20,000 nt of DNA from an uncultured virus (IMG/VR IMGVR_UViG_3300039159_000181) (lineage: Duplodnaviria; Heunggongvirae; Uroviricota; Caudoviricetes): the IMG/VR virus record IMGVR_UViG_3300039159_000181, one strand, 5' to 3'. The position numbers were made by a program, and so were the translations under genes. Below the pieces are notes generated by a model. That model was not told the DNA's origin and ran no database searches. It saw only the letters and a program-made list of their open reading frames with translations. This document shows, in pieces, positions 651 to 20,000 of this stretch; position 1 is the first letter of the stretch; every line of letters begins with the position of its first letter.

Positions 651-829
651 TACTTGGCGGTCTTTTTTGCAGGAGCCTTGCTCTTTTTGGAAGCAGCCAT
701 GTTGTCGATGAGGTTGGGGTAGGGACGGCCTGCCTTTTTTGCTGCCGCTTTGGCCGAAGCCTTCTGTCCCGTAGTGAGCTTTTTGTCCTTCTTGGTGGGG
801 TCGGGGGTGTTCCACACTGCTTTAGCCAT
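650..829 (-). CDS. small Lys/Ala-rich protein, 59 aa (MAKAVWNTPDPTKKDKKLTTGQKASAKAAAKKAGRPYPNLIDNMAASKK...)
   Basis: Translated by hand; not in the ORF track. TAATG overlap upstream and TAGTG overlap downstream. The AGRPYPNLxDNM motif is familiar from phage small proteins. Confidence 0.8.
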   Translation of the reverse strand: MAKAVWNTPDPTKKDKKLTTGQKASAKAAAKKAGRPYPNLIDNMAASKKSKAPAKKTAK

Positions 830-1140
830 TACTTCTTCTCCTTGGTGTTGAGGCGCTTGCTGATAGCCGCCGCCTTTGCCTTTGCATCAGACTTGCTGCT
901 TGCCCCCCAGGCATTGAGAGACAGCAGAAGGCGCGTGGGTTCTCCATTGGGCTTGCGTTCGGGGCCAGACATGCCCCCCATGCGGGCTAAGAACGAAGCC
1001 CGGCGGTGGTTGTCCCCCGATTTGACCGGGGACTTCAGGTCTGAGCCGGGGTTAGCCTTCTCGTAGGATTTGCGGCCTTTTTCGTTAAGGCCCCCCTTGG
1101 GGTTTTTGCCGTCTTTACGTTGCCATGCTTCACTAGCCAT
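829..1140 (-). CDS. basic phage protein, DUF6321-like (103 aa)
   Basis: AWQRKDGKNPKGGLNEKGRKSY...SDLKSPV...RRASFLARM pattern. ATG at 1138-1140 with a GGAGGGAG SD. Confidence 0.75.
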   Translation of the reverse strand: MASEAWQRKDGKNPKGGLNEKGRKSYEKANPGSDLKSPVKSGDNHRRASFLARMGGMSGPERKPNGEPTRLLLSLNAWGASSKSDAKAKAAAISKRLNTKEKK

Positions 1141-1202
1141 TGCGCGTCTCCCTCCGGGAAGCTCTGGGTGCAAGAAATATCGGGACTGTACTGCGTAGTG
1201 TA

Positions 1203-1799
1203 TTACGAAGAGTTCTCCGTTGTGGGCCTTTGCACCTGTTCGGGCTCCAAAGCATACTGTTGGAACTGCGCATCGTTGACAAGCTCTTCGGAGTTAACTT
1301 CATTACAGTCGACAGTAACCACGGCGTAGTAGTCCTTGAAGTGCCCCCGTGGCAACAGCCGAGTGGGCGAGAACACCTGGCCTTTGTATACGATGCGGTC
1401 TTTGATGTGCTGGTCGGGAATGGGCAGCATCTGCGGCAAGAGGGCATTGATGTCTTTGACGTTGATGACGAGGCGCAGTGTGTCAGTGGTATAGAAACCC
1501 CGCTCGTTGATGACGCTGCCTCCGCGGATAACCTGCGCCATCACGACCGGTACTTTCAGCGGCTCTAGCCACTTGCGCCCCAAAATAGTGGGGCTGCTAA
1601 GCGTTGCCGGGGTGGACTTCGAGGTGTCGTAAATGTCGTCCACGACATCCTCATAGTTTTCCTCTAGGTGGTCCTGGTCCCACTCCCACCAGTCGACGAC
1701 GTTTCCCACGGGTAAGCGCAGCTCGTCGTTGATGCCCTCGTAGATAGACAACGCTTCGTAGTCAATGTCAAAGCGACCCAAGATGTGTGTTCCGCGCAT
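1203..1799 (-). CDS. putative head-closure/neck structural protein
   Basis: 198-aa ORF with AAGGAG SD, positioned in the morphogenesis module. The C-terminal half (LRLVIN...DRIVYKGQVF) resembles head-completion proteins. Confidence 0.55.
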   Translation of the reverse strand: MRGTHILGRFDIDYEALSIYEGINDELRLPVGNVVDWWEWDQDHLEENYEDVVDDIYDTSKSTPATLSSPTILGRKWLEPLKVPVVMAQVIRGGSVINERGFYTTDTLRLVINVKDINALLPQMLPIPDQHIKDRIVYKGQVFSPTRLLPRGHFKDYYAVVTVDCNEVNSEELVNDAQFQQYALEPEQVQRPTTENSS

Positions 1800-1811
1800 A
1801 GTGGCTACTCC

Positions 1812-3170
1812 TTAGACGTTGGTGATGTTGCGCCAGGCTCCATTGCGGTAGACCTTGGCGTTGGTGATGTTGCGCCAGGCACCCTGCCGGTAGACCTTTC
1901 CCGTAGTGATGGGAATAAAGTCGGCATTGCGGAGTATGGTCCCGTAGGCCGCGACAAGGGTTGAGGCTGTTTCTACAAAGAGGCTGTTGCCGGTTACGTT
2001 CGTGGCAAAGGCGCGAAAGCGGTAGGTACTGCCGGGAGTTAAGCCACTGAATACGGTGCTGCCGCTGCTGATGTCCCGGGCAGACGGCCCGTCATACGGC
2101 AGCCCGTTTTCGCTGCGCTGCACGGTGTATGCGGAGATGCCGCTTCCGCCATCGTTCGATGAACCGGTGATGGTGATGGTGATGGAGGTGCCCACCTGGC
2201 TGGCGATAGTAATGGACTGCGGAGCTGTAGGTACTCCGGGGGTAAACGTGGAGGCGCTCGGTGCGCCCACACCCGCGGACGACACTGCTCGTGTTTGAAT
2301 GAAGTAGGGCTGATTTGGTGCCGCACCGGTCGTGGCGACGCCGTCGAGTCCCATCGACACCCAGCCACCCCAGTTAGAGCCGTTGGTGCTGGAGCGCCAG
2401 TTGTAGTCAGACAGTGCAACGGGTGACGAGACTCCCTGGGTAAAAATAGTCAGCGTGCCGCCATCGGCACTCCGGGAGAGGCTCGGAGCTCCGGGGGTGG
2501 TCGGCACTCCGGGACTCCAGGTCTCGGCGCTCCAGCCCCCCGCTCCTTCAGAGGACATTGCTCTCGTTTGAATGAAGTACGACGTCGTGGGGTCCACACC
2601 GATGCTGATGAACCCGTCGGTTCCCATGGACGACTCGCCGCTCCAGGTCGCCCCGATGCGAAAGCGGTATTGGTAGTCAGACAGTGTGACCGGAGATGAG
2701 GCCCCTTGGGAGGAGATATTAAGGGTTCCGCCTTCAGGGTTTCGCGAAAGGGTCGGAGCTCCTGGAGTGCTGGGAAGCCGTACGTAGTTGGTCAGTGTGG
2801 CGGTGCCACTACCGCTCTGGACTGTGCCCCACCCGGTAGTTCCGACAAACTGGCCACTGCCGCCAACACCGACGGCCAGGTCGCCGCCACCATTGTGGGT
2901 AACGACCTTTGAGGCGCGACCCATCTCTGTTACGACCCCTGAGCCACCAGCCCTAACTTCCCTACCAGTACCACCAATGTTGAAGTTTTCTCCGTGGATA
3001 GTCACGCTACCCGTGAAAGTACCGAAGGTCCGGGTGCTGCCTGTGGTAAATGCCGTCATGACGACAGTGACTGTGGACTGGTTGTTTGCGGCGTCATCGG
3101 TTGACGACCAGCTAATGGTGGGACGAACGAAGGAGGTTTGGTTCCAAATGCTAAAAGAGCCTGATGGCAC
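1812..3170 (-). CDS. virion protein with fibronectin type III-like repeats
   Basis: S/T/G-rich. FN3 signature P..P...SNDGGSGISAYTV...GLTPGSTYRFRAFATN..G, two tandem ~90-aa repeats, and a C-terminal KVYRxGAW repeat. Confidence 0.8.
   Translation of the reverse strand: MPSGSFSIWNQTSFVRPTISWSSTDDAANNQSTVTVVMTAFTTGSTRTFGTFTGSVTIHGENFNIGGTGREVRAGGSGVVTEMGRASKVVTHNGGGDLAVGVGGSGQFVGTTGWGTVQSGSGTATLTNYVRLPSTPGAPTLSRNPEGGTLNISSQGASSPVTLSDYQYRFRIGATWSGESSMGTDGFISIGVDPTTSYFIQTRAMSSEGAGGWSAETWSPGVPTTPGAPSLSRSADGGTLTIFTQGVSSPVALSDYNWRSSTNGSNWGGWVSMGLDGVATTGAAPNQPYFIQTRAVSSAGVGAPSASTFTPGVPTAPQSITIASQVGTSITITITGSSNDGGSGISAYTVQRSENGLPYDGPSARDISSGSTVFSGLTPGSTYRFRAFATNVTGNSLFVETASTLVAAYGTILRNADFIPITTGKVYRQGAWRNITNAKVYRNGAWRNITNV
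1817..1898. repeat. 42-bp-period tandem duplication (KVYRQGAWRNITNA / KVYRNGAWRNITNV)
   Basis: cgttggtgatgttgcgccaggc occurs at 1817 and 1859, and cggtagacctt follows in both copies. Confidence 0.9.
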
Positions 3171-3210
3171 GTTAACCCCCCACCCTCACGCTAGTGCTGT
3201 CCACGGGTCT

Positions 3211-4146
3211 CTAGCCCCAGAAGTAGAGGTCGCCTTCGACGACCCCGTTAGCGGCGACAGTTGGCTCGGTGTTCTGAATCCAGATGCGAGTGTTGGTGCT
3301 GTGGTTGCCCCAGTTGTTGACGCTACCGGCACCAAAGTCTGCGGCGGCGCGACCCGTGAGGACTGAGGAGGGGATAGTGGCAGAGGCCGTGACGTTGTTT
3401 CCTGCCGCGGTACCCACGAGATACCCGCTGAGGGCCACTCGGAGGTTGGCGGTTGTCAGAACGCTGGTTGCGGTGACGTCTGTCGCTGTGAGCGTACTTA
3501 CTCCGGAGATGTTGTTGTTACCCAAGGCCAAGTTACCGGTCATGGGCTGCGCCCCAGTTCGAAGCAGGGCGGTGTCGTTGACGTAGGTCTGCGTTGCTAC
3601 TGTCCCGGTCTCGTTGGGAAGAGTCAGAGTTCCACCCGCAGCGGCAGCGGCGCGAAGGGTCGTGGTACCGCTAGTAGAGCCCTGGAACACTGCACCACCG
3701 GAACCGATTCCCGGGGTGACCAGTGCGGGGGAGGTGGCGAACACCAGCGCGCCAGTACCGGTCTCATCGGCAACAACGGTAGCTAGCTCGGCGCTGGTTG
3801 TTGCGGCAAAGGCATTGAGCTTCGGCTGCGTCCAGCTAGGTACACCGGCAGCAAGTATCAGCACCTGGCCGTTGCCACCTGCGGGCAGAAGAACCGTTGT
3901 TCCCGCACCGCTCTGGTAGGCAAGGCTACCGGCGAGCCCCCCAGCAATGTTTGTGGCGGTCACCGCAGTAGTTGCCTGACCCGCAGCGGCGTACAGCAGC
4001 ACGTTCCACGCAGTGTTGCCGCTACCGACCTTGAAGCGGAGGGTATCGGTTTCTACCCCGAGCTCTCCGGCAGAGAGGACGGGGTTAGTAGCGGCCCAGT
4101 TCGCTTCAGTATCGCGGCGATGTTGAATGCGGGTTTCTACGGGCAT
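3211..4146 (-). CDS. fibre protein with N-terminal Mtd_N (major tropism determinant N-terminal)-like domain
   Basis: RIQHRRDTEANWAATNPVLSAGELGVETDTLRFKVGSGNTAWNVLLY, followed by an A/G/T-rich shaft including DETGTGALVFATSPAL. Confidence 0.8.
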   Translation of the reverse strand: MPVETRIQHRRDTEANWAATNPVLSAGELGVETDTLRFKVGSGNTAWNVLLYAAAGQATTAVTATNIAGGLAGSLAYQSGAGTTVLLPAGGNGQVLILAAGVPSWTQPKLNAFAATTSAELATVVADETGTGALVFATSPALVTPGIGSGGAVFQGSTSGTTTLRAAAAAGGTLTLPNETGTVATQTYVNDTALLRTGAQPMTGNLALGNNNISGVSTLTATDVTATSVLTTANLRVALSGYLVGTAAGNNVTASATIPSSVLTGRAAADFGAGSVNNWGNHSTNTRIWIQNTEPTVAANGVVEGDLYFWG

Positions 4147-4230
4147 AAGGTCTTCCTAGTTATCCAGGGATGACACCGCAGGGTGCCGTCGGCTTTTACA
4201 GTTTACGGAGAGCTATGGAGCATGTCCGGC

Positions 4231-5301
4231 TTAGCCCCAGCTCTCGCGGACCCGCTCGGTGAAGAAGTCTCCACCGATAACTTGAATACGGTCGGCCTCG
4301 GGGGTCGGCTCCACGATAATCTGCCAGTAGCTGCGCTTGAACAGGCGGCGGGTCTGCTCCGCGGACAGCGAGAGCTGCGCGGTGTAGGTGTCGCCCACCG
4401 AGGTGAGCACCATCGCGATGTCCTGCAACCGCTGAAGACTGCCGCGCTGGTGGATGATGCGGGCGTAGAACGCGGCCTCGCTGGTGTAGCTCCCGGTGAA
4501 AGTGACGGTGTCGTTCCAGGCGAGAGTCTGGTATGCGGTGAGGTCTCCCCCATCGGTTGGCCATGCCACGGGCACCGAGCCGTAGGTCGGCAGCGGCGCA
4601 TCGACACGCTTGGGCCACGAGCGGTCGTCGACTTCTTGCGCAACGAAGACCGGGACATAGCGCCCCGTCATCTTCGACTGGCGACGGAGTGTAAAGACAT
4701 CAATGGAGTACATTCCGATACCGAGCTGCACACACAACTCTTGGTACTGCGCCTGGCGGGTGCGCACCACCTCCATGAGCTGGCGGTAACGCTCAGACCT
4801 GGGGATAGTGATGCCATCAGGGGCCTGGATGTCGATGTCGAAGGCGGCATCGGTGGCGAGAGTGTAGAGCGCCAGCGTCGTGGCGAGGATAGCTAGCGGG
4901 TATTCCTCGACGAAGGGGAGGTTGTACAGCGTGAGCTCGCGTCCCAAAGAGTCGGTGCGGCGGGCACTGTGCTGGGCAAAGGCCGTTTCAAGCGTTGTTT
5001 CCAGCTCGGAGTTGGTGAAGTAGCGAAAGAAGGTCCCGCTAATCAGCAGGGTGCTTCCAGCGGCGGGGGGATTAGCCAGGACTAAGACCCCCGACTGCTC
5101 TTCTACCGAGGCTGTAGAGGATACATCGACCTGCGAGGTGGGGGTATCGACGAGAACAGTCAGGCCTAAGCCGTCCAACGGAGAGTGCTGGAGCTGAAAG
5201 CGTTCGGTGGTTCCGTCAGCAACGACAGTCTCCACGAAGGACTGCCCGAGGTCACCGAGTTCCATGCGAACCCGAGCAACTAGGGAGCTAAGAGTGGGCA
5301 C
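4231..5301 (-). CDS. putative head-tail adaptor/neck protein
   Basis: GTG start with GGAGG SD. N-terminal LVARVRMELGD...YFTNSELE adaptor-like helices with an inserted beta domain; lies downstream of the capsid gene. Confidence 0.65.
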   Translation of the reverse strand: MPTLSSLVARVRMELGDLGQSFVETVVADGTTERFQLQHSPLDGLGLTVLVDTPTSQVDVSSTASVEEQSGVLVLANPPAAGSTLLISGTFFRYFTNSELETTLETAFAQHSARRTDSLGRELTLYNLPFVEEYPLAILATTLALYTLATDAAFDIDIQAPDGITIPRSERYRQLMEVVRTRQAQYQELCVQLGIGMYSIDVFTLRRQSKMTGRYVPVFVAQEVDDRSWPKRVDAPLPTYGSVPVAWPTDGGDLTAYQTLAWNDTVTFTGSYTSEAAFYARIIHQRGSLQRLQDIAMVLTSVGDTYTAQLSLSAEQTRRLFKRSYWQIIVEPTPEADRIQVIGGDFFTERVRESWG

Positions 5302-5327
5302 AGTTCCTCCGAAACGGTCTAGACTCT

Positions 5328-5362
5328 ATGGTCTCGCGTTTCGTCCCCACAGACACGGCAAA
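5328..5362 (-). promoter_or_regulatory. degenerate copy of the putative late promoter motif (TTTGCC-N23-GACCAT)
   Basis: Same 23-nt spacing as the sites at 5837, 8555, 11247 and 17958. Lies directly after a terminator hairpin. Confidence 0.4.
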
Positions 5363-5365
5363 CAG

Positions 5366-5404
5366 CTGACCCCACTGTGAGGAAGGCGGTCACAGTGGGG
5401 TCAG
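5366..5404 (-). terminator. intrinsic terminator-like hairpin
   Basis: Perfect 15-bp stem ctgaccccactgtga/tcacagtggggtcag, followed by CTGTTT on the minus strand. Confidence 0.75.
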
Positions 5405-5420
5405 GTCTTAGTCCTGGAGC

Positions 5421-5792
5421 TTAGTTTGGTTGCCAAACGTAGCCGAGCATCTCCAGGTAGTCAGCAAGTCCTTTGTCGACCTTGTACTTCTGACCGGCTT
5501 TGAAGGTGTAGTTGTTGCCTACGCCGTACGTCATGTCTTCGATGTCGACGACGGTGCGGATGATGACACTGTTATCGCGCATCGTCACACCGAGCTCTTC
5601 GACCTCGTCCAGCACCAGCGGCACGTCGGGGTTCTTGGGGTCAAAGACCTCTGTGCGGAGGCTGACTTCTTCCTGGGCACGGACGAGGCTAATCTCGTCG
5701 GCGCGCTCGCGCAGGGTCTTTGCGTTTTCCTTAGCGGCCTTTTCAGCGGCTGCGCCGGTTGCGTCACGGGGGTCGGTACGAGTAGCTGCCAC
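5421..5792 (-). CDS. small head-associated structural protein (putative)
   Basis: 123 aa, GTG start with AAGGAG SD, strong GC3 bias like the capsid gene; lies between capsid and neck genes. Confidence 0.7.
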   Translation of the reverse strand: MAATRTDPRDATGAAAEKAAKENAKTLRERADEISLVRAQEEVSLRTEVFDPKNPDVPLVLDEVEELGVTMRDNSVIIRTVVDIEDMTYGVGNNYTFKAGQKYKVDKGLADYLEMLGYVWQPN

Positions 5793-5836
5793 GATGTTCT
5801 TCTCCTTGGTTGGTACTGCGGGGTATGTCGCGCTCT

Positions 5837-5871
5837 AGTTTTGCCCAGCAGGAGCGGGGTGTCAGCCTAAA
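5837..5871 (-). promoter_or_regulatory. putative late promoter TTTAGG-N23-AAAACT
   Basis: Matches the sites at 8555 and 11247. Overlaps the last codons and stop of the endonuclease gene. Confidence 0.6.
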
Positions 5872-6386
5872 AGTTTATGCGCCAATAGGTACTTGTATGC
5901 CCTCTGGACATTATCGAGGTCATCACGAAGGTTGCCGATGCCTAAGTTGCAGGGTCGGCATAAGAGGCCCCTGACCGCACCGGTGTCGTGGTTATGGTCA
6001 ATAGCAGGCTGCGTGCCGAGGGTCGCAAACTCCACTTCGCAAATGCAGCAGCGGTAGTCTTGGCGCTCCAATAGCTCGTTGTATTCGTCTTCCGTAATGC
6101 CGTAATGCTTCATGCGTGACCGTTTGACGGTCTGCTGACGGCACTGAGGACAGCGGACTTCCCCCGACCAAATAAGCACCGTAGCGGGGTCCAGGGGGTG
6201 CCCGCTGGCGCAGGTATCCGCCAACTGAAATGACGCTATCGGCCTTAGCGCGTTACGAAGGCGGGCTTCTCGCGCCAATAACGACTTACATGTTCGACAG
6301 CGGCGTGAGCCGTCAGCTCGGTAACTCGTGGTCTGTTCGGAAAACAGATGTCCACGGATGCAGTGGGACGGAGTCGCGCGCGGCAT
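5862..6386 (-). CDS. endonuclease VII-family (His-Me) protein with two N-terminal Cys/His zinc-ribbon repeats; probable free-standing homing endonuclease
   Basis: YGITEDEYNELLERQDYRCCIC...AIDHNHDTGAVRGLLCRPCNLGIG, plus the N-terminal repeats HCIRGH...RRCRTC and TCASGH...RCPQC. Confidence 0.88.
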   Translation of the reverse strand: MPRATPSHCIRGHLFSEQTTSYRADGSRRCRTCKSLLAREARLRNALRPIASFQLADTCASGHPLDPATVLIWSGEVRCPQCRQQTVKRSRMKHYGITEDEYNELLERQDYRCCICEVEFATLGTQPAIDHNHDTGAVRGLLCRPCNLGIGNLRDDLDNVQRAYKYLLAHKLLG

Positions 6387-6463
6387 AACAATTCGACAAT
6401 ATGGGAATGCTGCTCGGTAAACCGGACAAACTGTTTATCACCGCGGTATTTAGGGGGTTACGC

Positions 6464-6499
6464 CAAAGAGCGGGCCAGCAATCGCTGACCCGCTCTTTG
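6464..6499 (-). terminator. terminator hairpin after the major capsid gene
   Basis: Stem caaagagcggg/cccgctctttg, about 18 nt after the capsid stop. Confidence 0.75.
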
Positions 6500-6517
6500 T
6501 TGCCGCAAAAGGATTAC

Positions 6518-7630
6518 TTACGCGGTGTAGACCTTCGTGATGGCCTGGTCGGTGATGATACCGAGGCCCCAGATGGCGTACCATGCCAGCGCGTGCTCAC
6601 GACCGAAGTCAAGCACGCCACCGTCGCGCAGTTCCACCGGGAGGCTGATGGCGTGGCCGAAGGCGTTGTCACCAATCATGATGGATTCGTACACGTCGGT
6701 CACCGTGGTGCCTGCAGGAGCAGTGGCACCGGGCTCTTCAGGGTTACCACCTGAACCAGGAGCGGTGTTCGGACGAACCGGCACCGACCCAGCGTTCGGG
6801 GGTGCGCCAACGAGACCGGCGTAGTTGACGACCGTTCCCTGAGCCAGCTTTTTGACCTGAGTCGTCTCAATGAAGACCACGTCGTAAAGGCGACCGATTT
6901 CACCGAGCATGAAGTTACCGGGGGCGGCGTACTTCGTAACTTCGATGAACTCCGGGTTCGAGCGCAAGTCGCGCGACTGCTTCGGGTGAACGAACTGCAC
7001 GTAGGTCTCACCGATGCGGGGGATGTTCTTGCTGGCAAGTGTCAGAGCGGCATCCTTGATGGCACCGGTCGTCAGCTTGTGGTTCGCCGTCACACCAGCG
7101 ATGCTGGTGGCGCGGCTGCCCTCGTCGTAGTTGGTGAACGCGCCACCGGCGATAGCCGAGCGGTCGTAACCAAAGACAGCCGACGTCGCGGCACCGAGGG
7201 TGTTGCGAGCCTGCACGTCGAGGTACTGAGCCATGTGGCGACCCAGGAGACGCGAAGCCGATGCCATGATGTCATCGAACGAGGCGTTGAGCAGCAGTTC
7301 CGAAACCGCTACGGCGTAGCCGTGCTCGGCAACGGTGATGGCGATTTGCTCGGCAGTCAGAGCGTTGGTCGTCATACGAACACCCTCTGTGAGGGGGGTC
7401 GGGTCGACAGCAAAGTTCTTGTAACGCAGGAAGTTCACGCGGAGACCAGGCGCGACGCCCAGTTCCGTCTTCTTGACCGCGAACTGCTCGAAACGCAGAA
7501 TCGGCATGGCCTGGAAGAGGATTTCCTTAGACCAGATGGTCTGGATTGCCTGCGAGAGTTGTGAATTGCTGCCTGAATAGGCGGTGGGGGCACTGGCAAG
7601 CTGGCCGGTACCGGTAATTGCGGAAGCCAT
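6518..7630 (-). CDS. major capsid protein (N4-gp56 family, HK97 fold)
   Basis: IWSKEILFQAMPILRFEQFA, PLTEGV, YVQFVHP..SRDLR, GEIGRLYDVVFIET and LAWYAIWG motifs. GAAAGGA SD; follows the scaffold gene. Confidence 0.93.
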   Translation of the reverse strand: MASAITGTGQLASAPTAYSGSNSQLSQAIQTIWSKEILFQAMPILRFEQFAVKKTELGVAPGLRVNFLRYKNFAVDPTPLTEGVRMTTNALTAEQIAITVAEHGYAVAVSELLLNASFDDIMASASRLLGRHMAQYLDVQARNTLGAATSAVFGYDRSAIAGGAFTNYDEGSRATSIAGVTANHKLTTGAIKDAALTLASKNIPRIGETYVQFVHPKQSRDLRSNPEFIEVTKYAAPGNFMLGEIGRLYDVVFIETTQVKKLAQGTVVNYAGLVGAPPNAGSVPVRPNTAPGSGGNPEEPGATAPAGTTVTDVYESIMIGDNAFGHAISLPVELRDGGVLDFGREHALAWYAIWGLGIITDQAITKVYTA

Positions 7631-7682
7631 TATGGCTGGTCCTTTCGGTTGGGAGGTTGTTTGTTACGGGTAGTGGGTATTA

Positions 7683-8474
7683 CTACCCAAAAAGCCCCTG
7701 CCCACGATTGTTGCCTGCGCTGCCGAGCAGCTTTTGACGATTCTTGGCGTAGTCCGCCATCGACATATTTGCAATGTCTCCGGGGTTGTTCGAAATGTAG
7801 TCCGGGTCGTTGTCGAGGGGTCCAGAGGTCGGGGCAGTGATGCGGGTCCCCGGCATGTTTTGGCGAGTCTGCTGCGCGGCTTGCGCTACAGACTCAAAGA
7901 TTCGAGCAGAGCGCTCACGCAGAGTTGTTGCGCTGGCCTCTAGCTCTTCCACAGTGTTGCCCTGAATCAGGTCCAACAGTTCTGGAACGATGTTGTCTTG
8001 TTCGCGAGCCAGCAGAGTTTGACGCCGTTCTTGCAGCGCCTGGAACTCCTGCTCACGCTGCAGAAGAGCAAAAGCGCGTTCGCGCTCCGTACGCTCCGCT
8101 GTCAGCTGTTCGTGCCACTCTGCCTCTTTAAGACGAAGAAGGTCCTTAGCAGACATCTCTTCCTCTACGGCAAGCTTGCGCCGCTCATCCGCGAGGTCGG
8201 CTTCCTTGCGGCGTGCCTCAGACTCGGATGCTTCGCGGCTCACACGCTCATCCCGCTCTTTGCGGAGGATAGACAGTTCGTCTTCCATCTTGCTGAGCTG
8301 CGGGTAAAGCTTTTGCTTCTCCTGCTCACGAGCACGCTCGATGTCTTCGACGCTAAAGCTTTTGCCAAAAGGCGAAGCTTCAGGCGCGGGGACAGCTTGG
8401 GGAAGCTGGGTAATGGGGTCAGAAGCCACCTGCGGCTCCACATTCTCCGTTGTCAGTACGTTGTTTTTCGACAT
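7683..8474 (-). CDS. capsid scaffolding protein
   Basis: E/R-rich coiled coil, C-terminal DIANMSMADYAKNRQKLLG; sits between portal and capsid. Start probably ATG 8472-8474. Confidence 0.8.
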   Translation of the reverse strand: MSKNNVLTTENVEPQVASDPITQLPQAVPAPEASPFGKSFSVEDIERAREQEKQKLYPQLSKMEDELSILRKERDERVSREASESEARRKEADLADERRKLAVEEEMSAKDLLRLKEAEWHEQLTAERTERERAFALLQREQEFQALQERRQTLLAREQDNIVPELLDLIQGNTVEELEASATTLRERSARIFESVAQAAQQTRQNMPGTRITAPTSGPLDNDPDYISNNPGDIANMSMADYAKNRQKLLGSAGNNRGQGLFG

Positions 8475-8554
8475 GGGTGCTCTTCTCGTTGAGTGGTCGT
8501 TATCCGAGTGCCCCGAAGGACGTATCACATGACCTATTAGTTAGGAACGACACA

Positions 8555-8589
8555 AGTAAAGCCAAGACAGGTTCAGGTGTCTCCCTAAA
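8555..8589 (-). promoter_or_regulatory. putative late promoter TTTAGG-N23-TTTACT for scaffold and capsid
   Basis: Shares TTTTAGG..GACACC....CCTG...GGC...ACT with the 5837 site. Confidence 0.6.
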
Positions 8590-8610
8590 ACCATGTTCGC
8601 ACCGAAAAAG

Positions 8611-10341
8611 CTACTCGTCCTTGTCAACTACGCGGCGAGAAGGAAGTTTCGTGCCGTACGCAGCCTCAACCAGACGCATTCGCAACTCTTGCTCGCTGCC
8701 GCCCAGGAGACCGTCAAGCTGGGCATCGACGGGGCTCGCGCCCTCCGCGGCGGGGCCAGCGATGCCGTCGCCGAGGACATCCCCGTCACCGAGCATCATC
8801 GGGTCCATCGGCATCGCGGTTCCGTCAGGGCCTGGCATCATTCCGGTGAGGTCCACAATGGTCTTCTGGATGAGGACCTTGACCAAGTTCAGCGCGCCAT
8901 CGGCCTCGGTGTCTTCGCGCAGTTCTTTACGGACTTCGGCCAGCTTCTCGTCCGGGAACTCGTTGCCCAGAAGACGCAGTGCGCCCTCTTTGGACTCAAG
9001 GCCCATCGACATCTTCATCTGCAGCTCGTTGAGCATGATGAGCTTATCGAGGGGTAGCGGGTCATTGAAGTGGGTGTAGGTCCGATACGTTATCGGGTCA
9101 TTGGGGTCAAGCTGAGTCAGTTGGCCATCTTTGAGGGGGCCATCCTCTTCTGGGTTGTAGGTAAGGACTTCAGGCTCTTTAACCGCAAGGGTCAGCATAA
9201 CCAGCTCGTTGACGCGCTCGATGCCCGCACCGTACTGCGCCGTCTTCTGCGACCAGCGGTTCATCAGCGGCTGGTACTGAATGCTCAGTGCCACGCCGGA
9301 GGTGTTGGAGATGGGCTGCATCTGGCCGAGGGCCGTCTCTGGCACATTCATCAGCTCGTGCATCGAGGTCTTGAGCATCCGAAGATACTCCATCGCTCCC
9401 GCAAGGCCGCTAGCGCCACCTTCGAGGTTGAACACCTGCGCGTCTTTAGGGAGACCTCCCCAGACCTTCTTGGCACCCTTTTCCAGGTTAGAGGCCTTCG
9501 CGCCCACGATAACGGTCACCGGAGCGGCGTGGTAGTTGACGATGTCTGCCACGTCGGTGGAGATTTCGTTGTAGGCGCGGTTCAGGGTGATGATGTCGTG
9601 TGCATCCGAAAGACCCCAGGGGGAGCCAGAGACGGGGATGTTGGGGATGTGGATAACGGGGATAAGACCCAGGGGGTTTGGTCGACTGTCGATGAGCTCA
9701 TCGTTGACATACTCTTCGATGATGTCGTCGGTGAGAATCTCGGTGTAGGTGAACACCTGGCGGGTGCCTTCGAGCGAGGTGCCCCAGAAGCGGTACTTCT
9801 GCTTGAAGCGCAGGAGGCGTGTCCGGTCGTGGGGGTGGAACTCGGGAAAAGCAAAGGCGGGGTTTAGCGGCAGGATACGGACCTTGCCGGGGTGCATGCG
9901 GCCAATGGAGTCAACCCACGGCTCCTCGTAGGCGACTTTGACGAAGGCATCTCCGGTGATGCCGCCAGTCTGCCCCAGCTCTGTGAGGACACGCATCTTG
10001 TCGTTGTCTTCTTCCCAGACCCGCTTCAGGCGGTCAGGGACAATAGCTTCGGTGGAGCGGGCACTGCGGAAGTGGATACCTGCGCCGAAAGTAAATCTAG
10101 TCAGGTAGTCGATAAATGCGCGGTAGTAGTTAACCGCAATCTGCATCTCGCCCTGTTCCCGGCGGTAACCCCAGTGGTGACCTAAGTACATGGCCCAGTT
10201 GAGGGAGTACCGGTTTAGCCGCGGGCCGTGGACTTCAAACTCTTCGTCCGCCAGCTCGACAAGGCCCAGGGGGGAAATGGAGATGGTGAGGTCAGAAGAA
10301 GCGGCCCTATAGGACGGGGGTGAGAAGTCTGCGAATGACAT
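8611..10341 (-). CDS. portal protein (SPP1 gp6-like)
   Basis: 576 aa. VNYYRAFIDYLTRFTFG, GITGDAFV, NPLGLIPVIHIPN, WGLSD and SNTSGVAL motifs; lies between terminase and scaffold. Confidence 0.9.
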   Translation of the reverse strand: MSFADFSPPSYRAASSDLTISISPLGLVELADEEFEVHGPRLNRYSLNWAMYLGHHWGYRREQGEMQIAVNYYRAFIDYLTRFTFGAGIHFRSARSTEAIVPDRLKRVWEEDNDKMRVLTELGQTGGITGDAFVKVAYEEPWVDSIGRMHPGKVRILPLNPAFAFPEFHPHDRTRLLRFKQKYRFWGTSLEGTRQVFTYTEILTDDIIEEYVNDELIDSRPNPLGLIPVIHIPNIPVSGSPWGLSDAHDIITLNRAYNEISTDVADIVNYHAAPVTVIVGAKASNLEKGAKKVWGGLPKDAQVFNLEGGASGLAGAMEYLRMLKTSMHELMNVPETALGQMQPISNTSGVALSIQYQPLMNRWSQKTAQYGAGIERVNELVMLTLAVKEPEVLTYNPEEDGPLKDGQLTQLDPNDPITYRTYTHFNDPLPLDKLIMLNELQMKMSMGLESKEGALRLLGNEFPDEKLAEVRKELREDTEADGALNLVKVLIQKTIVDLTGMMPGPDGTAMPMDPMMLGDGDVLGDGIAGPAAEGASPVDAQLDGLLGGSEQELRMRLVEAAYGTKLPSRRVVDKDE

Positions 10342-10484
10342 TAGGCCAAAACCTCGTTTATGTAGGGGCTAGAGAAGCAGGCTGCTCGCCGCATATTCGA
10401 CAGTACAGGCTGGCCAACGTGCGTACGGGGGTGAACCGTAGAGCTCTGCATCGCGGGGCTGGTCATCTGCGTCACGGCGTAGTG

Positions 10485-10739
10485 CTACTTCTTCTTGTCG
10501 TCTTTAGCGACAGCGTGTTCGCCGCCGTGGGCTTTCATCGCCTCTTTGCGTTTCTGCCACTGACGACCGAGCTTCTCTGCTTGGGCACGCGCGGTGGTGT
10601 CGATAAAACGCCCGCCGTACTTGACGTACTGCTCGTGGACCCAGTGACTTGCGGCAGGGGAGGGGTAGGTCTGGTACTTAGCCCGAGCCTGGGCTCCAAG
10701 GCTGGCCCAAAGCCTTTCGTTCGCAGGCTTTTGGGCCAC
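10485..10739 (-). CDS. small basic conserved phage protein
   Basis: GTG start with GGAGG SD; PAN..LW.....QARAKY..YPSPAASHWVHEQYVKYGGRF motif. Confidence 0.75.
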   Translation of the reverse strand: MAQKPANERLWASLGAQARAKYQTYPSPAASHWVHEQYVKYGGRFIDTTARAQAEKLGRQWQKRKEAMKAHGGEHAVAKDDKKK

Positions 10740-10756
10740 GGTTCCTCCAAGCAGAG

Positions 10757-10794
10757 GGTCACCCCGCCCGCCTGGTAGTGGGTGCGGGGTGACC
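10757..10794 (-). terminator. GC-rich intergenic hairpin (terminator or mRNA-stabilising)
   Basis: 11-bp stem ggtcaccccgc/gcggggtgacc just after the stop at 10806; weak U tail. Confidence 0.55.
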
Positions 10795-10805
10795 GGTGAG
10801 GCTAG

Positions 10806-11201
10806 TTAGTCCTGGACGACAGTCGGGTTGAGACGCGCGGTGCGGGCACCGGTGCGGGCAACAACTTCGACGACCTGCTCGGCGTAGTCCGTGAACGAGC
10901 CGTGTGCGAACTCCGCAAGGAAGGTAGGTGCCTCAATCCAGGCGGCGCTACCGACGTGGGCGCGCTCGCTGAGGGTCTCTGCGGCTGACTTCAGCCACAC
11001 AGGGGCGTTGCGGTTTGGACGGCCAGGAGCCGAAGCAAAACCGTTCATGATGCCGGTCTGGAAGTCGGTGGGGACATCCGTGTCGGTGGCAAGGCCCTCT
11101 TCAAAGCGCAGCGGTCCGCGGCGGTCGAGGTTGTCGGCAACCTTGAGCTCGTAGGTCTGGGGTGCGCGTTCCGGGAACATAGGTGCGGGGCCAATGCCCA
11201 T
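10806..11201 (-). CDS. conserved hypothetical, probably virion protein
   Basis: AAGGAG SD, strong codon bias, RRGPLRFEEGLATDTDVP motif; has its own promoter motif and a downstream hairpin. Confidence 0.8.
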   Translation of the reverse strand: MGIGPAPMFPERAPQTYELKVADNLDRRGPLRFEEGLATDTDVPTDFQTGIMNGFASAPGRPNRNAPVWLKSAAETLSERAHVGSAAWIEAPTFLAEFAHGSFTDYAEQVVEVVARTGARTARLNPTVVQD

Positions 11202-11246
11202 GGGGAAACTCCTTAGCTAGGTGAGAGTACTGCAATCTCTGTTCCA

Positions 11247-11281
11247 AGTTTGACGACCTGACGGAGGCTTTGGGGCCTAAA
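11247..11281 (-). promoter_or_regulatory. putative late promoter TTTAGG-N23-CAAACT
   Basis: Same boxes and spacing as the 5837 and 8555 sites. Confidence 0.6.
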
Positions 11282-11289
11282 CAGTCGGC

Positions 11290-12900
11290 TCAGCTAAAGA
11301 ACACGTTCGTTGTTGCTTCAATCTCCGGCATAACCAAATCGCGAGTCATGGAGCAGGCAATAGCGAGGGAGTCCACAAAGTCATCGTGGGCATGGGCCTC
11401 ATCCGGCGCGGCGACGGTGAAGGTATTGCCGCGGTACTTGACCTCAGCGTCCGTCAGCTGCTGAGTAAACCGCTTCCACATCCGCAGTCGCCGGGTCTTG
11501 GCGTGGGCGGGGTAGGACAACGCCTGGCGCTGAATAAGCGCCTGGAGGTGCTTGAAGCGTGTCGACTGTTCGCTGGAGCTGGAGGTCAGTGCAACGACCT
11601 GCGCACGGGGCATCAGTACTTTGAGCCGCTGGGCGACCGCGTCACCGACACCGTTGCCGTCGATTCCCACTGCTAGGACATCGTAGTTAGAGAGGAAGTT
11701 GACCATCTGGAAGTACTGCTCTTCCCAGTCATCGCCCTGTATCTCTAGCCAGTTGAGGATTCGGTGGTCGAAGTAGCCAAACTCATCGGGGCGGTCCCAG
11801 TCGACCCAGACCACAGTGACGACCGTAGAGTCGGCCTTTCGGGCGGGGTCGATACCGACAACAACGGGGGTCTTGTGCCAGACCTTGACGACCTCTTGGC
11901 TGGTGTCTCCCAGGGCTTCGAGGGCGGTCTGAGTCACGAACATCCCGCGCTCCAGCAGCCACTTACAGTTGTAGCTCATCTGGAACTCGTCGGAGTCCTC
12001 GCCAATGCGCAGCATCTCCTTGCGGATGAACTTCTGGTAGTTCTTGTTGACCTTAGCCACGTCGCGCCAATCCCACTGGAAGTGGTTCTGGCGCGCGCCT
12101 CGGCCCGTCTGCCGCCTCCGGTTGAGCTGGATAGCGCGGTAGAAGTTGTTCTTCGAGGTAGTTGGGGTCCCGGTCTTTATCATCGTCCCGGCGTAGTACG
12201 CCAGCATCGGGCTGATGGACTTCGACACAACGAAGTCATCGGCCTCTTGCGACTCGTCGATGACGATGACATGGAAGGACTTGGACTCAATCTTGGCGCG
12301 GGGGTTAGCGGTCATCATGGTCAGTGTCGAGCCGGACTTCTTCAGGCGAATCATCCGCGTTACTCCGCCGACTCGCTGTGCCTGGTCGTCAATCTCCGGG
12401 TCACCCAGGACATCGAGCGCCTGCTCGGACGTCAGCCGAGTAACTGTGCGGCTAAAGAGGGTCTCCGCCTGCGACTCGGTGGGTGCAAACATCCCTACCC
12501 AGAGGCCATCTTTAAACTTCCCCAGCAATTCGGGGTAGAGACTTGCCAGCAGAGGCAGGATGACCATAAGGGTTGCCAGGACATCGGATACGGTCTCGGT
12601 CTTGCCGGACTGGCGCGCCGCCAGTGCGGTGATTTCTTCACCGTCGTTGATGAGTATGGACTCGATGATGCGCCGAGCGAGGGGCTTTTGGTAAACATGC
12701 AGGTCGTGGCCGACCATCACGACCATAAACGCCATTATCTTGTCGATAAGTTTGGCTACAAACTCCCGGGAGAGTTCATCTTCAGGCTCCTCCTCGAAGT
12801 CTTCTCCCTCGACATGCTCTGCGTAGAACTCCGGGGTTATCTCCTCGAACTGGTCTTCAAGTCCATCGAGAACTTCGTCTTCAGTAGGGTCAGAACTCAC
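11290..12900 (-). CDS. terL: terminase large subunit
   Basis: Walker A AARQSGKT, Walker B VIVIDESQ, coupling motif TGTP, and RNase H-like nuclease motifs VGIDPAR and HDDFVDSLA. Confidence 0.95.
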   Translation of the reverse strand: MSSDPTEDEVLDGLEDQFEEITPEFYAEHVEGEDFEEEPEDELSREFVAKLIDKIMAFMVVMVGHDLHVYQKPLARRIIESILINDGEEITALAARQSGKTETVSDVLATLMVILPLLASLYPELLGKFKDGLWVGMFAPTESQAETLFSRTVTRLTSEQALDVLGDPEIDDQAQRVGGVTRMIRLKKSGSTLTMMTANPRAKIESKSFHVIVIDESQEADDFVVSKSISPMLAYYAGTMIKTGTPTTSKNNFYRAIQLNRRRQTGRGARQNHFQWDWRDVAKVNKNYQKFIRKEMLRIGEDSDEFQMSYNCKWLLERGMFVTQTALEALGDTSQEVVKVWHKTPVVVGIDPARKADSTVVTVVWVDWDRPDEFGYFDHRILNWLEIQGDDWEEQYFQMVNFLSNYDVLAVGIDGNGVGDAVAQRLKVLMPRAQVVALTSSSSEQSTRFKHLQALIQRQALSYPAHAKTRRLRMWKRFTQQLTDAEVKYRGNTFTVAAPDEAHAHDDFVDSLAIACSMTRDLVMPEIEATTNVFFS

Positions 12901-13129
12901 GGGCGCGTCGCTTTAGCTCTCGTGTAATAGCCAGCAGTGCCTCAGCACCCATCTCCGCTTCGGAGAGCATCGCCTCGTCGTTGTTTCGACTGCCATGCAC
13001 AATGTTTTTTCCGATGGCAAAGAGGGCATTCTCGCCCCACACCGCAAGCTCAGAGGTCGGGATACCCGCTATCCGCTTCTCCAGCCGAGTCTGGGGCGGG
13101 GGTCCAGCCTTTGTCTTCGTGAAAATCAT
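12890..13129 (-). CDS. hypothetical helical protein immediately upstream of terL
   Basis: Likely start ATG 13127-13129 (MIFTKTK...). Overlaps the terL start and the end of the upstream gene. Confidence 0.65.
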   Translation of the reverse strand: MIFTKTKAGPPPQTRLEKRIAGIPTSELAVWGENALFAIGKNIVHGSRNNDEAMLSEAEMGAEALLAITRELKRRAREF

Positions 13130-13379
13130 TATCAGTAAGGTCCCGTCGTTGAATGGCCCGGTTGAGTGCTTCTTCTTCTGGTAACTGCCCTGTCCAGCGC
13201 CCGAAGGCAAGAGCTCGGTGGCGTGGCAGGCGCACGATGATGGGCTCAGAAGTGCGGAAAGGCTCTTCTATCTCCTGCGTCCAGCCACGTACCCAAACCT
13301 TAGCTCCCCACTTAACGGGAAACCGCAGAAACTGAATGAAGTACTTGTTGTCGACGCCGTAGTCGTGGGTAACGGGCAT
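13050..13379 (-). CDS. hypothetical protein
   Basis: 109-aa ORF 4 nt after the KTSC gene; GWTQEIEEPFRTSEPIIVRLP motif. Confidence 0.75.
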   Translation of the reverse strand: MPVTHDYGVDNKYFIQFLRFPVKWGAKVWVRGWTQEIEEPFRTSEPIIVRLPRHRALAFGRWTGQLPEEEALNRAIQRRDLTDNDFHEDKGWTPAPDSAGEADSGYPDL

Positions 13380-13383
13380 TGTG

Positions 13384-14271
13384 CTAGGGGTTCTTTCGTC
13401 GTCCGGTCTTTTGTGCGGGGTTCTTGCCCGAAGTTGCAGCGGGGTTCTTGCCCTGACGATACGCGACTTGCTGCGCCCGCGGTTGCCGATTAGGTCGGAT
13501 ACCCTGATTGCCCTGGTACAGAATCTGGTTCGTCCGAGAGACTCGGTAAAACAGCTCTTGGGCCTTCTCCGACAGGTAGCTCATATCGGCGTAGCCGCGG
13601 GGCTTAGAGTTCAACTTCTCGAAAATGTACTTGCCCTTGCTTTTGGCAGCTTTGAAGGCAGTCCACATCTGGTACGCGACGCTGTAGTAGTTGTAGAAGG
13701 TGCCATCCCGGAACACCACCGTGAGGGTCTGCCGCTCACGGTCATACCCGGCAGCAACCGTTCTCGGCCTGCGGGGGTTTGTGGTGGAGGTGGGCCGCAC
13801 CGTAAGGGCAGCGGGGCCGTTTTCGTGATTGCGGGGGTCAGCAGCCCTGTTTGGGTACTTATCGTTGGGCGAGTAGAACAAGCCAGCGGTCTGGTCAAAG
13901 CCCATGCCCTCCGCTTCAGGCCGGTCCTGCAGTACTGCGTATGCCTCCGTGACGCGGTTATTCTCTCCGTAACGCCGCAAGGTTGCACGGTAGTTTGTTG
14001 TGCGGGCAAACTCTCCGCGCCCTGAGGCAATGGGCAACGCGGCGGCAAACGACTCATCAATGACGTCTCGGTTGCGTAGACGCGTGGGTGCTGGAACGCC
14101 CTTAGGAGCAACGTGGCTCTGCTGCGTTGCTCGGAAAGCCTCTTCGGCTACCCCGCGGTTGAATCCGTAGATACGGTTCCGGGGGTCTGACCTGTTTAAG
14201 CGCTCTGCTGTGCTTTCCGCTTCCTGCCGCGAGGGGCGGGAGGGTGGCATATTGGCGGGCACTTGTGCCAT
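13384..14271 (-). CDS. KTSC domain-containing basic protein
   Basis: TVAAGYDRERQTLTVVFRDGTFYNYYSV...WTAFKAAKSKGKYI is a KTSC signature. Confidence 0.85.
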   Translation of the reverse strand: MAQVPANMPPSRPSRQEAESTAERLNRSDPRNRIYGFNRGVAEEAFRATQQSHVAPKGVPAPTRLRNRDVIDESFAAALPIASGRGEFARTTNYRATLRRYGENNRVTEAYAVLQDRPEAEGMGFDQTAGLFYSPNDKYPNRAADPRNHENGPAALTVRPTSTTNPRRPRTVAAGYDRERQTLTVVFRDGTFYNYYSVAYQMWTAFKAAKSKGKYIFEKLNSKPRGYADMSYLSEKAQELFYRVSRTNQILYQGNQGIRPNRQPRAQQVAYRQGKNPAATSGKNPAQKTGRRKNP

Positions 14272-14292
14272 TGGTCAAACCCCCGGAGAGTG

Positions 14293-14325
14293 AGCGGAGC
14301 TATACGTCTGCGGTATAGCTCCGCT
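14293..14325 (-). terminator. perfect 13-bp intergenic hairpin
   Basis: agcggagctatac/gtatagctccgct, 7 nt after the stop at 14333; no U tail. Confidence 0.6.
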
Positions 14326-15039: not shown

Positions 15040-15279
15040 CTAGACGTTGTCGTCGCACAGGTGAGAGGAAAGACCCTCCTCGTACATGACATCGCCGCAG
15101 TACTTACAACGGTACATGCGTACGTCGTCCAGCGCTTCGTGTAGCGAATCTGAATGCTCTTCTTCGTCGTAAACTACGCGGCCCTGCGCAAGAACTTCTG
15201 GCGGGAAAGGTCCTCGGGGGGAGTGCGCAGTACGTGGAATAGCGTGCCCCTGGACGGCAAACTTCCGAATGATAGGCAT
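15040..15279 (-). CDS. small protein with a C-terminal CxxC...HxC zinc finger; probably leaderless
   Basis: YRCKYCG...SHLC. ATG 15277-15279 lies 6 nt after TATGCT and has no clear SD at normal spacing. Confidence 0.75.
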   Translation of the reverse strand: MPIIRKFAVQGHAIPRTAHSPRGPFPPEVLAQGRVVYDEEEHSDSLHEALDDVRMYRCKYCGDVMYEEGLSSHLCDDNV

Positions 15280-15309
15280 AGCTCCAGCATACTCCGACAG
15301 AAACAGCAA

Positions 15310-15334
15310 GACCCCCCTACACAGTAGGAGGGTC
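15310..15334 (-). terminator. intrinsic terminator after the CESCQ micro-ORF
   Basis: Minus strand GACCCTCCTAC-TGT-GTAGGGGGGTC followed by TTGCTGTTTCT. Confidence 0.7.
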
Positions 15335-15351
15335 CGCGGGGGTGATGCTAG

Positions 15352-15435
15352 TTACTGGCAGCTCTCACACTGCAGCTCGTCCATGGGGTCGTTTGGGACG
15401 TAGTACCCACCAACGGTTTCAGTCTTGGGGTCCAT
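15352..15435 (-). CDS. 27-aa microprotein MDPKTETVGGYYVPNDPMDELQCESCQ, resembling the RNR alpha C-terminal CxxC tail
   Basis: Translated by hand. GAGGAG SD 10 nt before the ATG; overlaps the upstream stop; TAA followed by a terminator. Confidence 0.75.
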   Translation of the reverse strand: MDPKTETVGGYYVPNDPMDELQCESCQ

Positions 15436-15766
15436 CGGGGGTAGTCTCCTCTGTTTCGGTGGTTTCAGAAGTACCAGTATCCCCCACTACGGGGTCCGAT
15501 GCTTCTACCATCAGAGGCTTTTTAGCTACTACTTTGCGGGACTTTGCCTTCGGCGCAGCGGGTTCAGGCGAAAGCTTGCTGAGGGCTTCAGCCTTAATGA
15601 GGTCATGCCCTTCAGTCCTCACCACGAGAGTTACCGGAGCTCCGTTTTGGCGCAAGAAGCTGGGTAGGTGCTTCCCGCAGAAGTGCTGTGCGAAGTCCGC
15701 CGTCAGGATGTAGGAGTAGAGCGCGCCTTCAGGGCAGTTGGCGCAGACGAGGTTGAGGTCAGTCAC
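15419..15766 (-). CDS. small protein with an N-terminal CxxC...CxxH zinc finger and a disordered tail
   Basis: CANC...FCGKHLP; GTGA overlap with the upstream gene. Confidence 0.75.
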   Translation of the reverse strand: MTDLNLVCANCPEGALYSYILTADFAQHFCGKHLPSFLRQNGAPVTLVVRTEGHDLIKAEALSKLSPEPAAPKAKSRKVVAKKPLMVEASDPVVGDTGTSETTETEETTPDGPQD

Positions 15767-19249: not shown

Positions 19250-19283
19250 TAACGGCCCCCCGAGTAGAACCGGGGGGCCGTTA
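19250..19283 (-). terminator. intrinsic terminator
   Basis: Stem taacggccccccg/cggggggccgtta, followed by GTATTT on the minus strand. Confidence 0.8.
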
Positions 19284-19892: not shown

Positions 19893-20000
19893 TTACGCGT
19901 TGACCTCGTAGGAGGTGTTGGTCGACTCGAAGAAGTTGACGAGCTGAAGGGTGTCGTTGGCGGTTGCCATCCACTTGGCCGGGTTCGACACGTTGTACTG
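19893..20000 (-). CDS. nrdB: class I ribonucleotide reductase beta (R2) subunit, C-terminal 35 aa (partial)
   Basis: Hand translation QYNVSNPAKWMATANDTLQLVNFFESTNTSYEVNA*. NP..WM...NFFE.....Y is the R2 C-terminal signature. Confidence 0.85.
   Translation of the reverse strand, partial: QYNVSNPAKWMATANDTLQLVNFFESTNTSYEVNA

Follow-up and report, generated by a model that had tools for sequence, protein, structure and literature searches.

A candidate free-standing redox tail of class I ribonucleotide reductase encoded by a 27-residue phage gene

A very short gene on a tailed-phage contig is predicted, with a probability of about 0.8 and on the basis of sequence comparisons, to encode, as a separate peptide, the counterpart of the redox tail found at the C-terminus of the class I ribonucleotide reductase (RNR) alpha subunit, NrdA. 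RNR makes the building blocks of DNA and is essential, and the tail of its alpha subunit has so far been regarded as inherent to it. NrdA proteins lacking any C-terminal cysteine were found, however, in Microbacteriaceae, Saccharibacteria and phages with this type of RNR, and in these genomes the tail is encoded as a separate small ORF.

The peptide gene and its surroundings

The analysed stretch of DNA (20,000 nt from an uncultured virus, in the following called the window) belongs to a tailed phage, and its large terminase, portal, major capsid and tail-fibre genes are all located on the minus strand. The peptide gene occupies positions 15352..15435 of the same strand, with the ATG at 15435-15433 and a TAA stop codon at 15354-15352, and is translated as MDPKTETVGGYYVPNDPMDELQCESCQ*. 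A Shine-Dalgarno-like GAGGAG (15446..15451, minus), read from the sequence, is found 10 nt 5′ of the ATG. Upstream, a 115-aa ORF taken from the ORF list (15419..15766, minus) overlaps the peptide gene with its last 17 nt, which suggests coupled translation of the two. Downstream, a consensus scan identified an intrinsic-terminator-like hairpin of 12 pairs (7 of them G-C) followed by the T-rich sequence TGCTGTTTCT at 15309..15335 (minus). This hairpin (15335-15309) begins 16 nt past the peptide stop codon, and its predicted RNA fold has an energy of -23.5 kcal/mol (z = -2.4 in comparison to shuffles).

These features agree with a first-pass annotation of the window, which had described the ORF with its GAGGAG motif and the overlap with the upstream stop without naming the strand, and had placed a terminator 17 nt rather than 16 nt downstream. 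The same annotation had reported an RNR beta gene ending at 19893. Indeed, the minus-strand frame 19893..20000 in the ORF list, cut by the window edge at position 20000, represents the 3′ end of nrdB, i.e. the last 35 codons of RNR beta, and 34 of the 35 residues are identical to those of bacterial NrdB proteins. Between nrdB and the peptide gene, a second, strong terminator-like hairpin, readable on either strand, is present at 19250-19283 (minus 19272-19253; 13 pairs, 10 of them G-C), situated between a 160-aa and a 104-aa ORF. This hairpin may form a boundary between nrdB and the genes preceding the peptide gene, which makes co-transcription of nrdB and the peptide gene uncertain.

The 115-aa ORF yielded no match in Pfam or PHROGs. 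Both ORFs flanking the peptide gene on the minus strand carry motifs of the Cys-x2-Cys type, namely CANCPEG...C..H in the upstream one (15419-15766) and CKYCG...HLC in the downstream one (15040-15309), and no family match was obtained for either. Genes for an HNH endonuclease and an endonuclease VII (351-815 and 5862-6386, minus) are embedded in the structural/tail module. The nearest viral record (G001) matches the window at 99% over 3211-14294 and at 94% over 1-2410, leaving 2411-3210 unmatched. The unmatched stretch falls inside an fn3 minor tail protein gene (1812-3170) and may represent a swapped receptor-binding segment. DNA searches of the peptide region for near and distant relatives in the phage collection gave no matches, and a search for relatives of the 160-aa neighbouring ORF, as a route to nrdA, found none.

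A conserved family of short peptides

The product of the gene belongs to a large and strongly conserved family of 20-35-aa peptides ending in ...VPxDPMDxLQCxSCQ-stop, which is represented by at least 120 viral loci and at least 120 loci in bacterial genomes. Searches using tblastn with the peptide revealed weak but collinear matches in four reference phages, each of them corresponding to a tiny ORF. In the Clavibacter phages CMP1 (L004 3010..3078; MGDGEYTVPQDPMDEFQCDSCQ) and CN1A (L006 2983..3054; MNNDNEYTVPIDPMDELICEGCQ) as well as in the Pontimonas phage phiPsal1 (L005 2974..3075; ...VPIDPMDLLQCTSCQ) this ORF is unannotated, while in the Pseudanabaena phage Pan2 (L007 2989..3069; MDDFDTIDGFACPNDPADLVSCESCQ) the gene Pan2_27 is annotated over the same DNA in a different frame.

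Viral contigs were scanned with a degenerate DNA pattern for P-x-D-P-x-D-x3-C-x2-C-Q-stop, which gave at least 120 matches. All 120 matches listed are members of the family, with 104 distinct 22-residue tails, and among these tails positions left free by the pattern are also conserved (Met at -9 in 84, Leu at -6 in 75 and Ser at -2 in 85 of the 104). The same pattern matches the window once and none of 200 shuffles; taken together with the uniform family membership of the listed viral matches, this indicates that the peptide ORF is not a product of chance. A second scan was independent of the cysteines (V-P-x-D-P-M-D-x-L; at least 120 matches). The 120 matches listed comprise 108 sequences with C-x-x-C-Q-stop, two with C-x-x-C-E-stop and 10 unrelated chance matches, so that both cysteines are retained in 110 of the 110 family members among them, the C-x-x-C always being located one residue from the end. 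The peptide of the window ends in ...QCESCQ-stop and thus possesses the two terminal cysteines that are characteristic of an RNR alpha tail.

At conserved residues every synonymous codon is used, including all six Ser and all six Leu codons, and nucleotide differences among the family members listed amount to 26916, 21550 and 61836 at codon positions 1, 2 and 3, respectively. The excess at third positions and the synonymous codon use point to selection acting on the protein. A start codon giving a product of 18-75 aa is present in 119 of 120 viral and 122 of 123 genomic copies listed (median 26-27 aa). A search with the peptide profile against PDB sequences yielded 0 matches at E <= 10.

Homology to the C-terminal tail of NrdA

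Within one clade of NrdA, marked by ...KTTYYLHMKPRHTAEQS..., the final ~20 residues of the protein are homologous to the peptide. A homology search for longer proteins bearing the motif, started from an alignment with a naturally occurring 61-aa long form of the peptide as its first sequence, returned an NrdA fragment (P0004) ending in ...EYEVPVDPMDDLQCESCQ. At first sight this fragment resembles a natural fusion of NrdA and tail. Compared with locus L221, it reads as a -1-frame read-through of the split arrangement, the apparent fusion probably being an indel or assembly artefact, and it was not counted as a fusion. Used as phmmer query against 1.84 billion representatives, the fragment returned 150 NrdA relatives. 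The YY motif is present in 123 of the 150 representatives listed; 80 of these 123 end in C-x-x-C-Q, in 22 the C-x-x-C is followed by 0-3 final residues, and cysteines after YY are missing from 11. Within the subclade marked by YYLHxKPRH, 13 of the NrdA proteins listed have tails such as VDGTACPVDPQERLQCDSCQ and seven have none.

A profile built from the free peptides (67 sequences, 22 positions) matches 11 of the 150 NrdA representatives listed, with E-values from 3e-7 to 2e-3 (e.g. IVDGTACPVDPQERLQCDSCQ). Each of the 11 matches ends at the final residue of NrdA and spans 15-22 of the 22 positions. This location at the extreme C-terminus shows the free peptide to be a homologue of the tail of that NrdA clade, as had been proposed in the first-pass annotation. 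C-terminal CXXC motifs are common in the enzyme class, being present in 1737 of 2022 class I RNR sequences (Burnim et al., 2022; PMC9531940). In the available parts of this and a related publication (PMC9531940, PMC9669993) detached tails are not mentioned, and no description of a free-standing class I RNR tail was found in the literature. An AlphaFold2 model of a naturally fused NrdA (L190) has a core with a mean pLDDT of 88.1, while residues 785-855 remain below a pLDDT of 50. The low confidence of the tail fits a flexible arm and gives no docking information.

The extent of the homology also bears on the question whether the resemblance to an RNR tail might be coincidental and the product an unrelated peptide, for instance a zinc or iron knuckle dimerising via four cysteines or the precursor of a RiPP. 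Metals are frequently coordinated by C-x-x-C pairs, the sequence is short and acidic, and neither Pfam nor PHROGs nor NCBIfam contains a model for it or its long form, all of which would suit such a product. However, the similarity to NrdA tails covers 15-22 residues and thus reaches beyond the C-x-x-C, the synteny and the complementarity of fused and split forms with NrdA (see below) are strong, and no conserved modifying enzyme adjoins the gene in the 120 viral loci listed. An unrelated metal-binding or precursor peptide is therefore considered very improbable.

Split and fused arrangements in bacterial genomes

In bacterial genomes, the peptide pattern was found at at least 121 loci. The loci listed belong to Microbacteriaceae (Leifsonia, Clavibacter, Lacisediminihabitans, Cryobacterium, Pontimonas and others), Saccharibacteria and other Patescibacteria. 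Sixty of the 123 genomic matches listed adjoin nrdA and/or nrdB, and the usual place of the separate tail ORF is between these two genes. For 50 loci among the matches listed (Microbacteriaceae and Saccharibacteria) the end of NrdA was readable, with 45 being split and five fused; labels, seen for three of the fused loci, assign them to Patescibacteria. In all 45 split loci among the matches listed, NrdA contains no cysteine after the YY dyad, and in split loci the peptide ORF ends 65-338 nt past the nrdA stop codon. The Saccharibacteria peptide is a long form of 53-72 aa with an N-terminal LEEKLAAID helix. The partner NrdA is of class I, as it has the YY dyad and an adjacent nrdB, and its best NCBIfam model is NF005101 (ribonucleoside-diphosphate reductase alpha).

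Five genomes were searched for RNR alpha genes with the domain PF02867. Four of them, namely Clavibacter, Leifsonia poae, Naasia and one labelled Streptomyces sp. L7, contain a single such gene, and in all four the peptide ORF comes directly after this gene, which encodes a tail-less NrdA. The fifth, an incomplete Pontimonas MAG of ~0.9 Mb, gave no match. In Clavibacter, the host genus of phages CMP1 and CN1A, the lone tail-less PF02867 gene is followed immediately by MNDDTFGDYVVPMDPMDELQCDSCQ. For the Clavibacter 25-mer, UniRef uses the name "Ribonucleotide reductase, alpha 2 subunit" and NCBI the name "subunit beta"; the bacterial peptide is thus named only loosely as an RNR subunit in public databases.

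Since the frame of the peptide is often -1 with respect to nrdA and open far upstream, a programmed frameshift joining the tail to NrdA was also taken into account. This is thought unlikely, because high GC3 accounts for the open frame, and because the peptide starts at a codon of its own and works in phages as a solitary gene.

In addition to the copy at nrdAB, a second chromosomal copy of the MDYENDSVGGYAVPVDPMDLLQCDSCQ type is found in many Microbacteriaceae away from nrdAB, upstream of hadA-hadB-murB (e.g. L130, L138, L158, L192 and L197). This linkage was observed in 16-20 of 40 loci without RNR neighbours among the matches listed, and the position of the second copy hints at a role beyond RNR. 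Furthermore, a glutaredoxin/NrdH-like protein with a CAPC site (95-99 aa; P0167-P0181) is naturally fused to a tail motif of the form ...DAP[IV]DPSDALACEGCQ. The fusion is present in each of the 15 members listed from a cluster of 73, one example being encoded at L014:2694-2990 (minus) on a viral contig without RNR alpha.

Both the conserved second copy and this redoxin fusion would be in accordance with a more general function, in which the peptide acts as a diffusible two-cysteine shuttle for several disulfide-forming enzymes, RNR being one client among them. Against such a general carrier stands the specificity of the homology, which is to the NrdA tail, and the fact that the commonest genomic place of the gene is between nrdA and nrdB. 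Moreover, the absence of cysteines from NrdA coincides exactly with the presence of a separate peptide (45 of the 45 split loci listed), and no other client enzyme was identified. We regard this explanation as improbable.

RNR content and gene context of the phage copies

A search of viral contigs with the NrdA alignment identified members of this clade, with 73-74% identity, on three contigs, each of which combines a Cys-less NrdA with a free peptide gene located about 0.1-1 kb upstream. In one of them (L128) the gene order is peptide, nrdA, nrdB; its NrdA (1120 aa, including an intein) ends in ...KTTYYLHTKPRHTAEQSTVKVNK...PRKGFGFKSAN and contains no cysteine there. The L128 nrdA (808..4170) has an NCBIfam intein N-terminal match at residues 448-514. 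In another contig, L374, a free ORF of 315 aa (9026..9973) lies between the peptide gene and nrdA and by eye resembles the intein/homing-endonuclease segment of L128. Concerning the phage of the window, the NrdB end described above is identical at 34 of 35 residues to the NrdB C-termini of the split nrdA-peptide-nrdB loci L191, L165 and L180. From this identity we infer that its NrdA, encoded beyond position 20000, is probably tail-less as well.

The tail is thus a free-standing ORF rather than covalently attached to alpha in the window, in 45 of the 50 bacterial loci listed and in all three phage contigs with this nrdA, which makes the peptide a detached homologue and not a tail in the strict sense. 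The suggestion of the first-pass annotation that the peptide serves a tail-less NrdA in a split RNR is supported by these bacterial loci and phage contigs, and for the window itself the NrdB identity makes a tail-less NrdA probable. Likewise, the co-occurrence of homologues that it had proposed to examine was found with the tail-less NrdA clade. It does not extend to phage RNR in general: RNR alpha (PF02867) is present in none of the four complete reference phage genomes with the peptide and in only one (L128) of 50 peptide-bearing IMG/VR records, including none of the 22 with a completeness of 90% or more. It follows that most phage copies must act on the tail-less enzyme of the host.

The gene context of the phage copies varies considerably. 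Among the 120 viral loci listed, the peptide gene was found after an M23 endolysin gene in 33 cases, after a holin gene in 19 and a further 5, between the large terminase and portal genes in 25 and after a metallophosphoesterase gene in nine. Clustering of the neighbours in these 120 loci revealed no shared enzyme, the contexts changing from one to the next. A lysis-related role, considered since the gene follows a holin gene in the four reference phages, was rejected on account of the varying contexts and of the homology and synteny that point to RNR.

The scarcity of phage-encoded RNR alpha raises the question whether the phage peptide might be directed against the host. As a decoy or inhibitor, it would compete with the host tail peptide or trap host thioredoxin or NrdH and thereby throttle dNTP synthesis or disturb the redox balance. 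It would in this respect be likened to Sml1, a small RNR inhibitor that competes with the R1 tail. RNR alpha is missing from 49 of 50 peptide-bearing viral records and from all four complete phage genomes, so that the target in most phages would be a host protein, and the gene is often placed like an accessory one, either behind lysis genes at the end of an operon or between those for terminase and portal. Nevertheless, the phage copies are near-identical to the functional peptide encoded by the host (e.g. ...VDGYAVPVDPMDLLQCDSCQ in a phage compared with MNEDNVGGYAVPVDPMDLLQCDSCQ in a host). The retention of both cysteines in all 110 members listed leaves no trapping variant such as C-x-x-S among them. 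In addition, replicating phages need dNTPs, and the three phages with their own RNR of this clade all carry the peptide, too. An inhibitory function thus appears unlikely, though somewhat less so than a general dithiol carrier, and a peptide supporting RNR turnover remains the preferred reading.

Proposed function and implications

As a redox tail acting in trans, the reduced peptide would enter the active site of NrdA after each turnover and reduce the disulfide formed there with its Cys-x-x-Cys pair. The oxidised peptide would then depart and be re-reduced by a protein of the thioredoxin fold (Trx, NrdH or Grx). The natural fusion of the tail to a glutaredoxin/NrdH-like protein lends such a redox relay indirect support. 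The docking affinity that is otherwise given by covalent attachment might be supplied by the conserved Y-x-V-P-x-D-P-M-D-x-L-Q segment. In the phage of the window, the peptide would most likely serve the phage's own NrdA/NrdB, with NrdA presumed to be tail-less, and possibly the host enzyme too. In the many phages with the peptide but without RNR, it would most likely feed the tail-less NrdA of the host. In the latter case the peptide would be the product of a 75-nt auxiliary gene that sustains the turnover of dNTP synthesis during infection.

Extending this further, the class I RNR of Microbacteriaceae and Saccharibacteria might be a three-component enzyme, the turnover of which depends on a diffusible dithiol peptide of ~25 aa. 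Phages would have acquired the gene for this peptide, possibly the smallest of all auxiliary metabolic genes, and even those without RNR would express it to override the dNTP limit of the host, the supply of the peptide being the throttle. We put this broader model forward tentatively and consider its chances to be slightly short of even.

A natural tail that is separate and only 25 residues long would allow a clean study of how the active site is accessed and which reductant recharges it. The findings also illustrate that genes of 75 nt, which are missed by gene callers, can belong to core metabolism, and they draw attention to a very small and very common phage gene that probably manipulates the nucleotide supply of the host. 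With regard to annotation, they correct three reference phage records that lack the gene and a fourth that has another frame in its place, as well as the NCBI name "subunit beta" for the bacterial peptide.

Comparison with known systems

Like the tail of class I RNR alpha (NrdA/R1), the peptide is flexible and acidic and carries a terminal pair of cysteines, and it aligns to such tails over 15-22 residues. It differs in being a separate product of 20-35 aa, translated from a start codon and ribosome-binding site of its own, whose cognate NrdA is Cys-less after the YY dyad (45 of 45 split loci listed). Moreover, copies also travel alone in RNR-less phages.

A rearrangement of redox components is also known from the NrdB of Facklamia ignava, in which a glutaredoxin domain is fused to an RNR subunit. 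In both cases parts of the RNR redox relay have been shuffled between polypeptides, a glutaredoxin-like CAPC protein being fused to the tail in the system described here. However, the reductant is placed on beta in F. ignava, whereas here it is placed on the shuttle tail and neither of the two is joined to alpha or beta.

A parallel in terms of function might be the NrdJa/NrdJb pair of Pseudomonas aeruginosa, which is referred to as a unique split RNR in a free-living organism in the available part of the report by Crona et al. (2015; PMC4520616). According to the same part of this report, disulfide exchange via the C-terminal cysteines is the main role of NrdJb. Going by that description, both systems place the Cys-bearing redox part on a protein other than the catalytic polypeptide. 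Yet NrdJa/NrdJb is a class II (B12-dependent) RNR and NrdJb a larger folded subunit, whereas the enzyme considered here belongs to class I and only its tail is detached and mobile among phages. By analogy, the tail-peptide system would thus work like NrdJb, but it is not a member of the NrdJa/NrdJb type.
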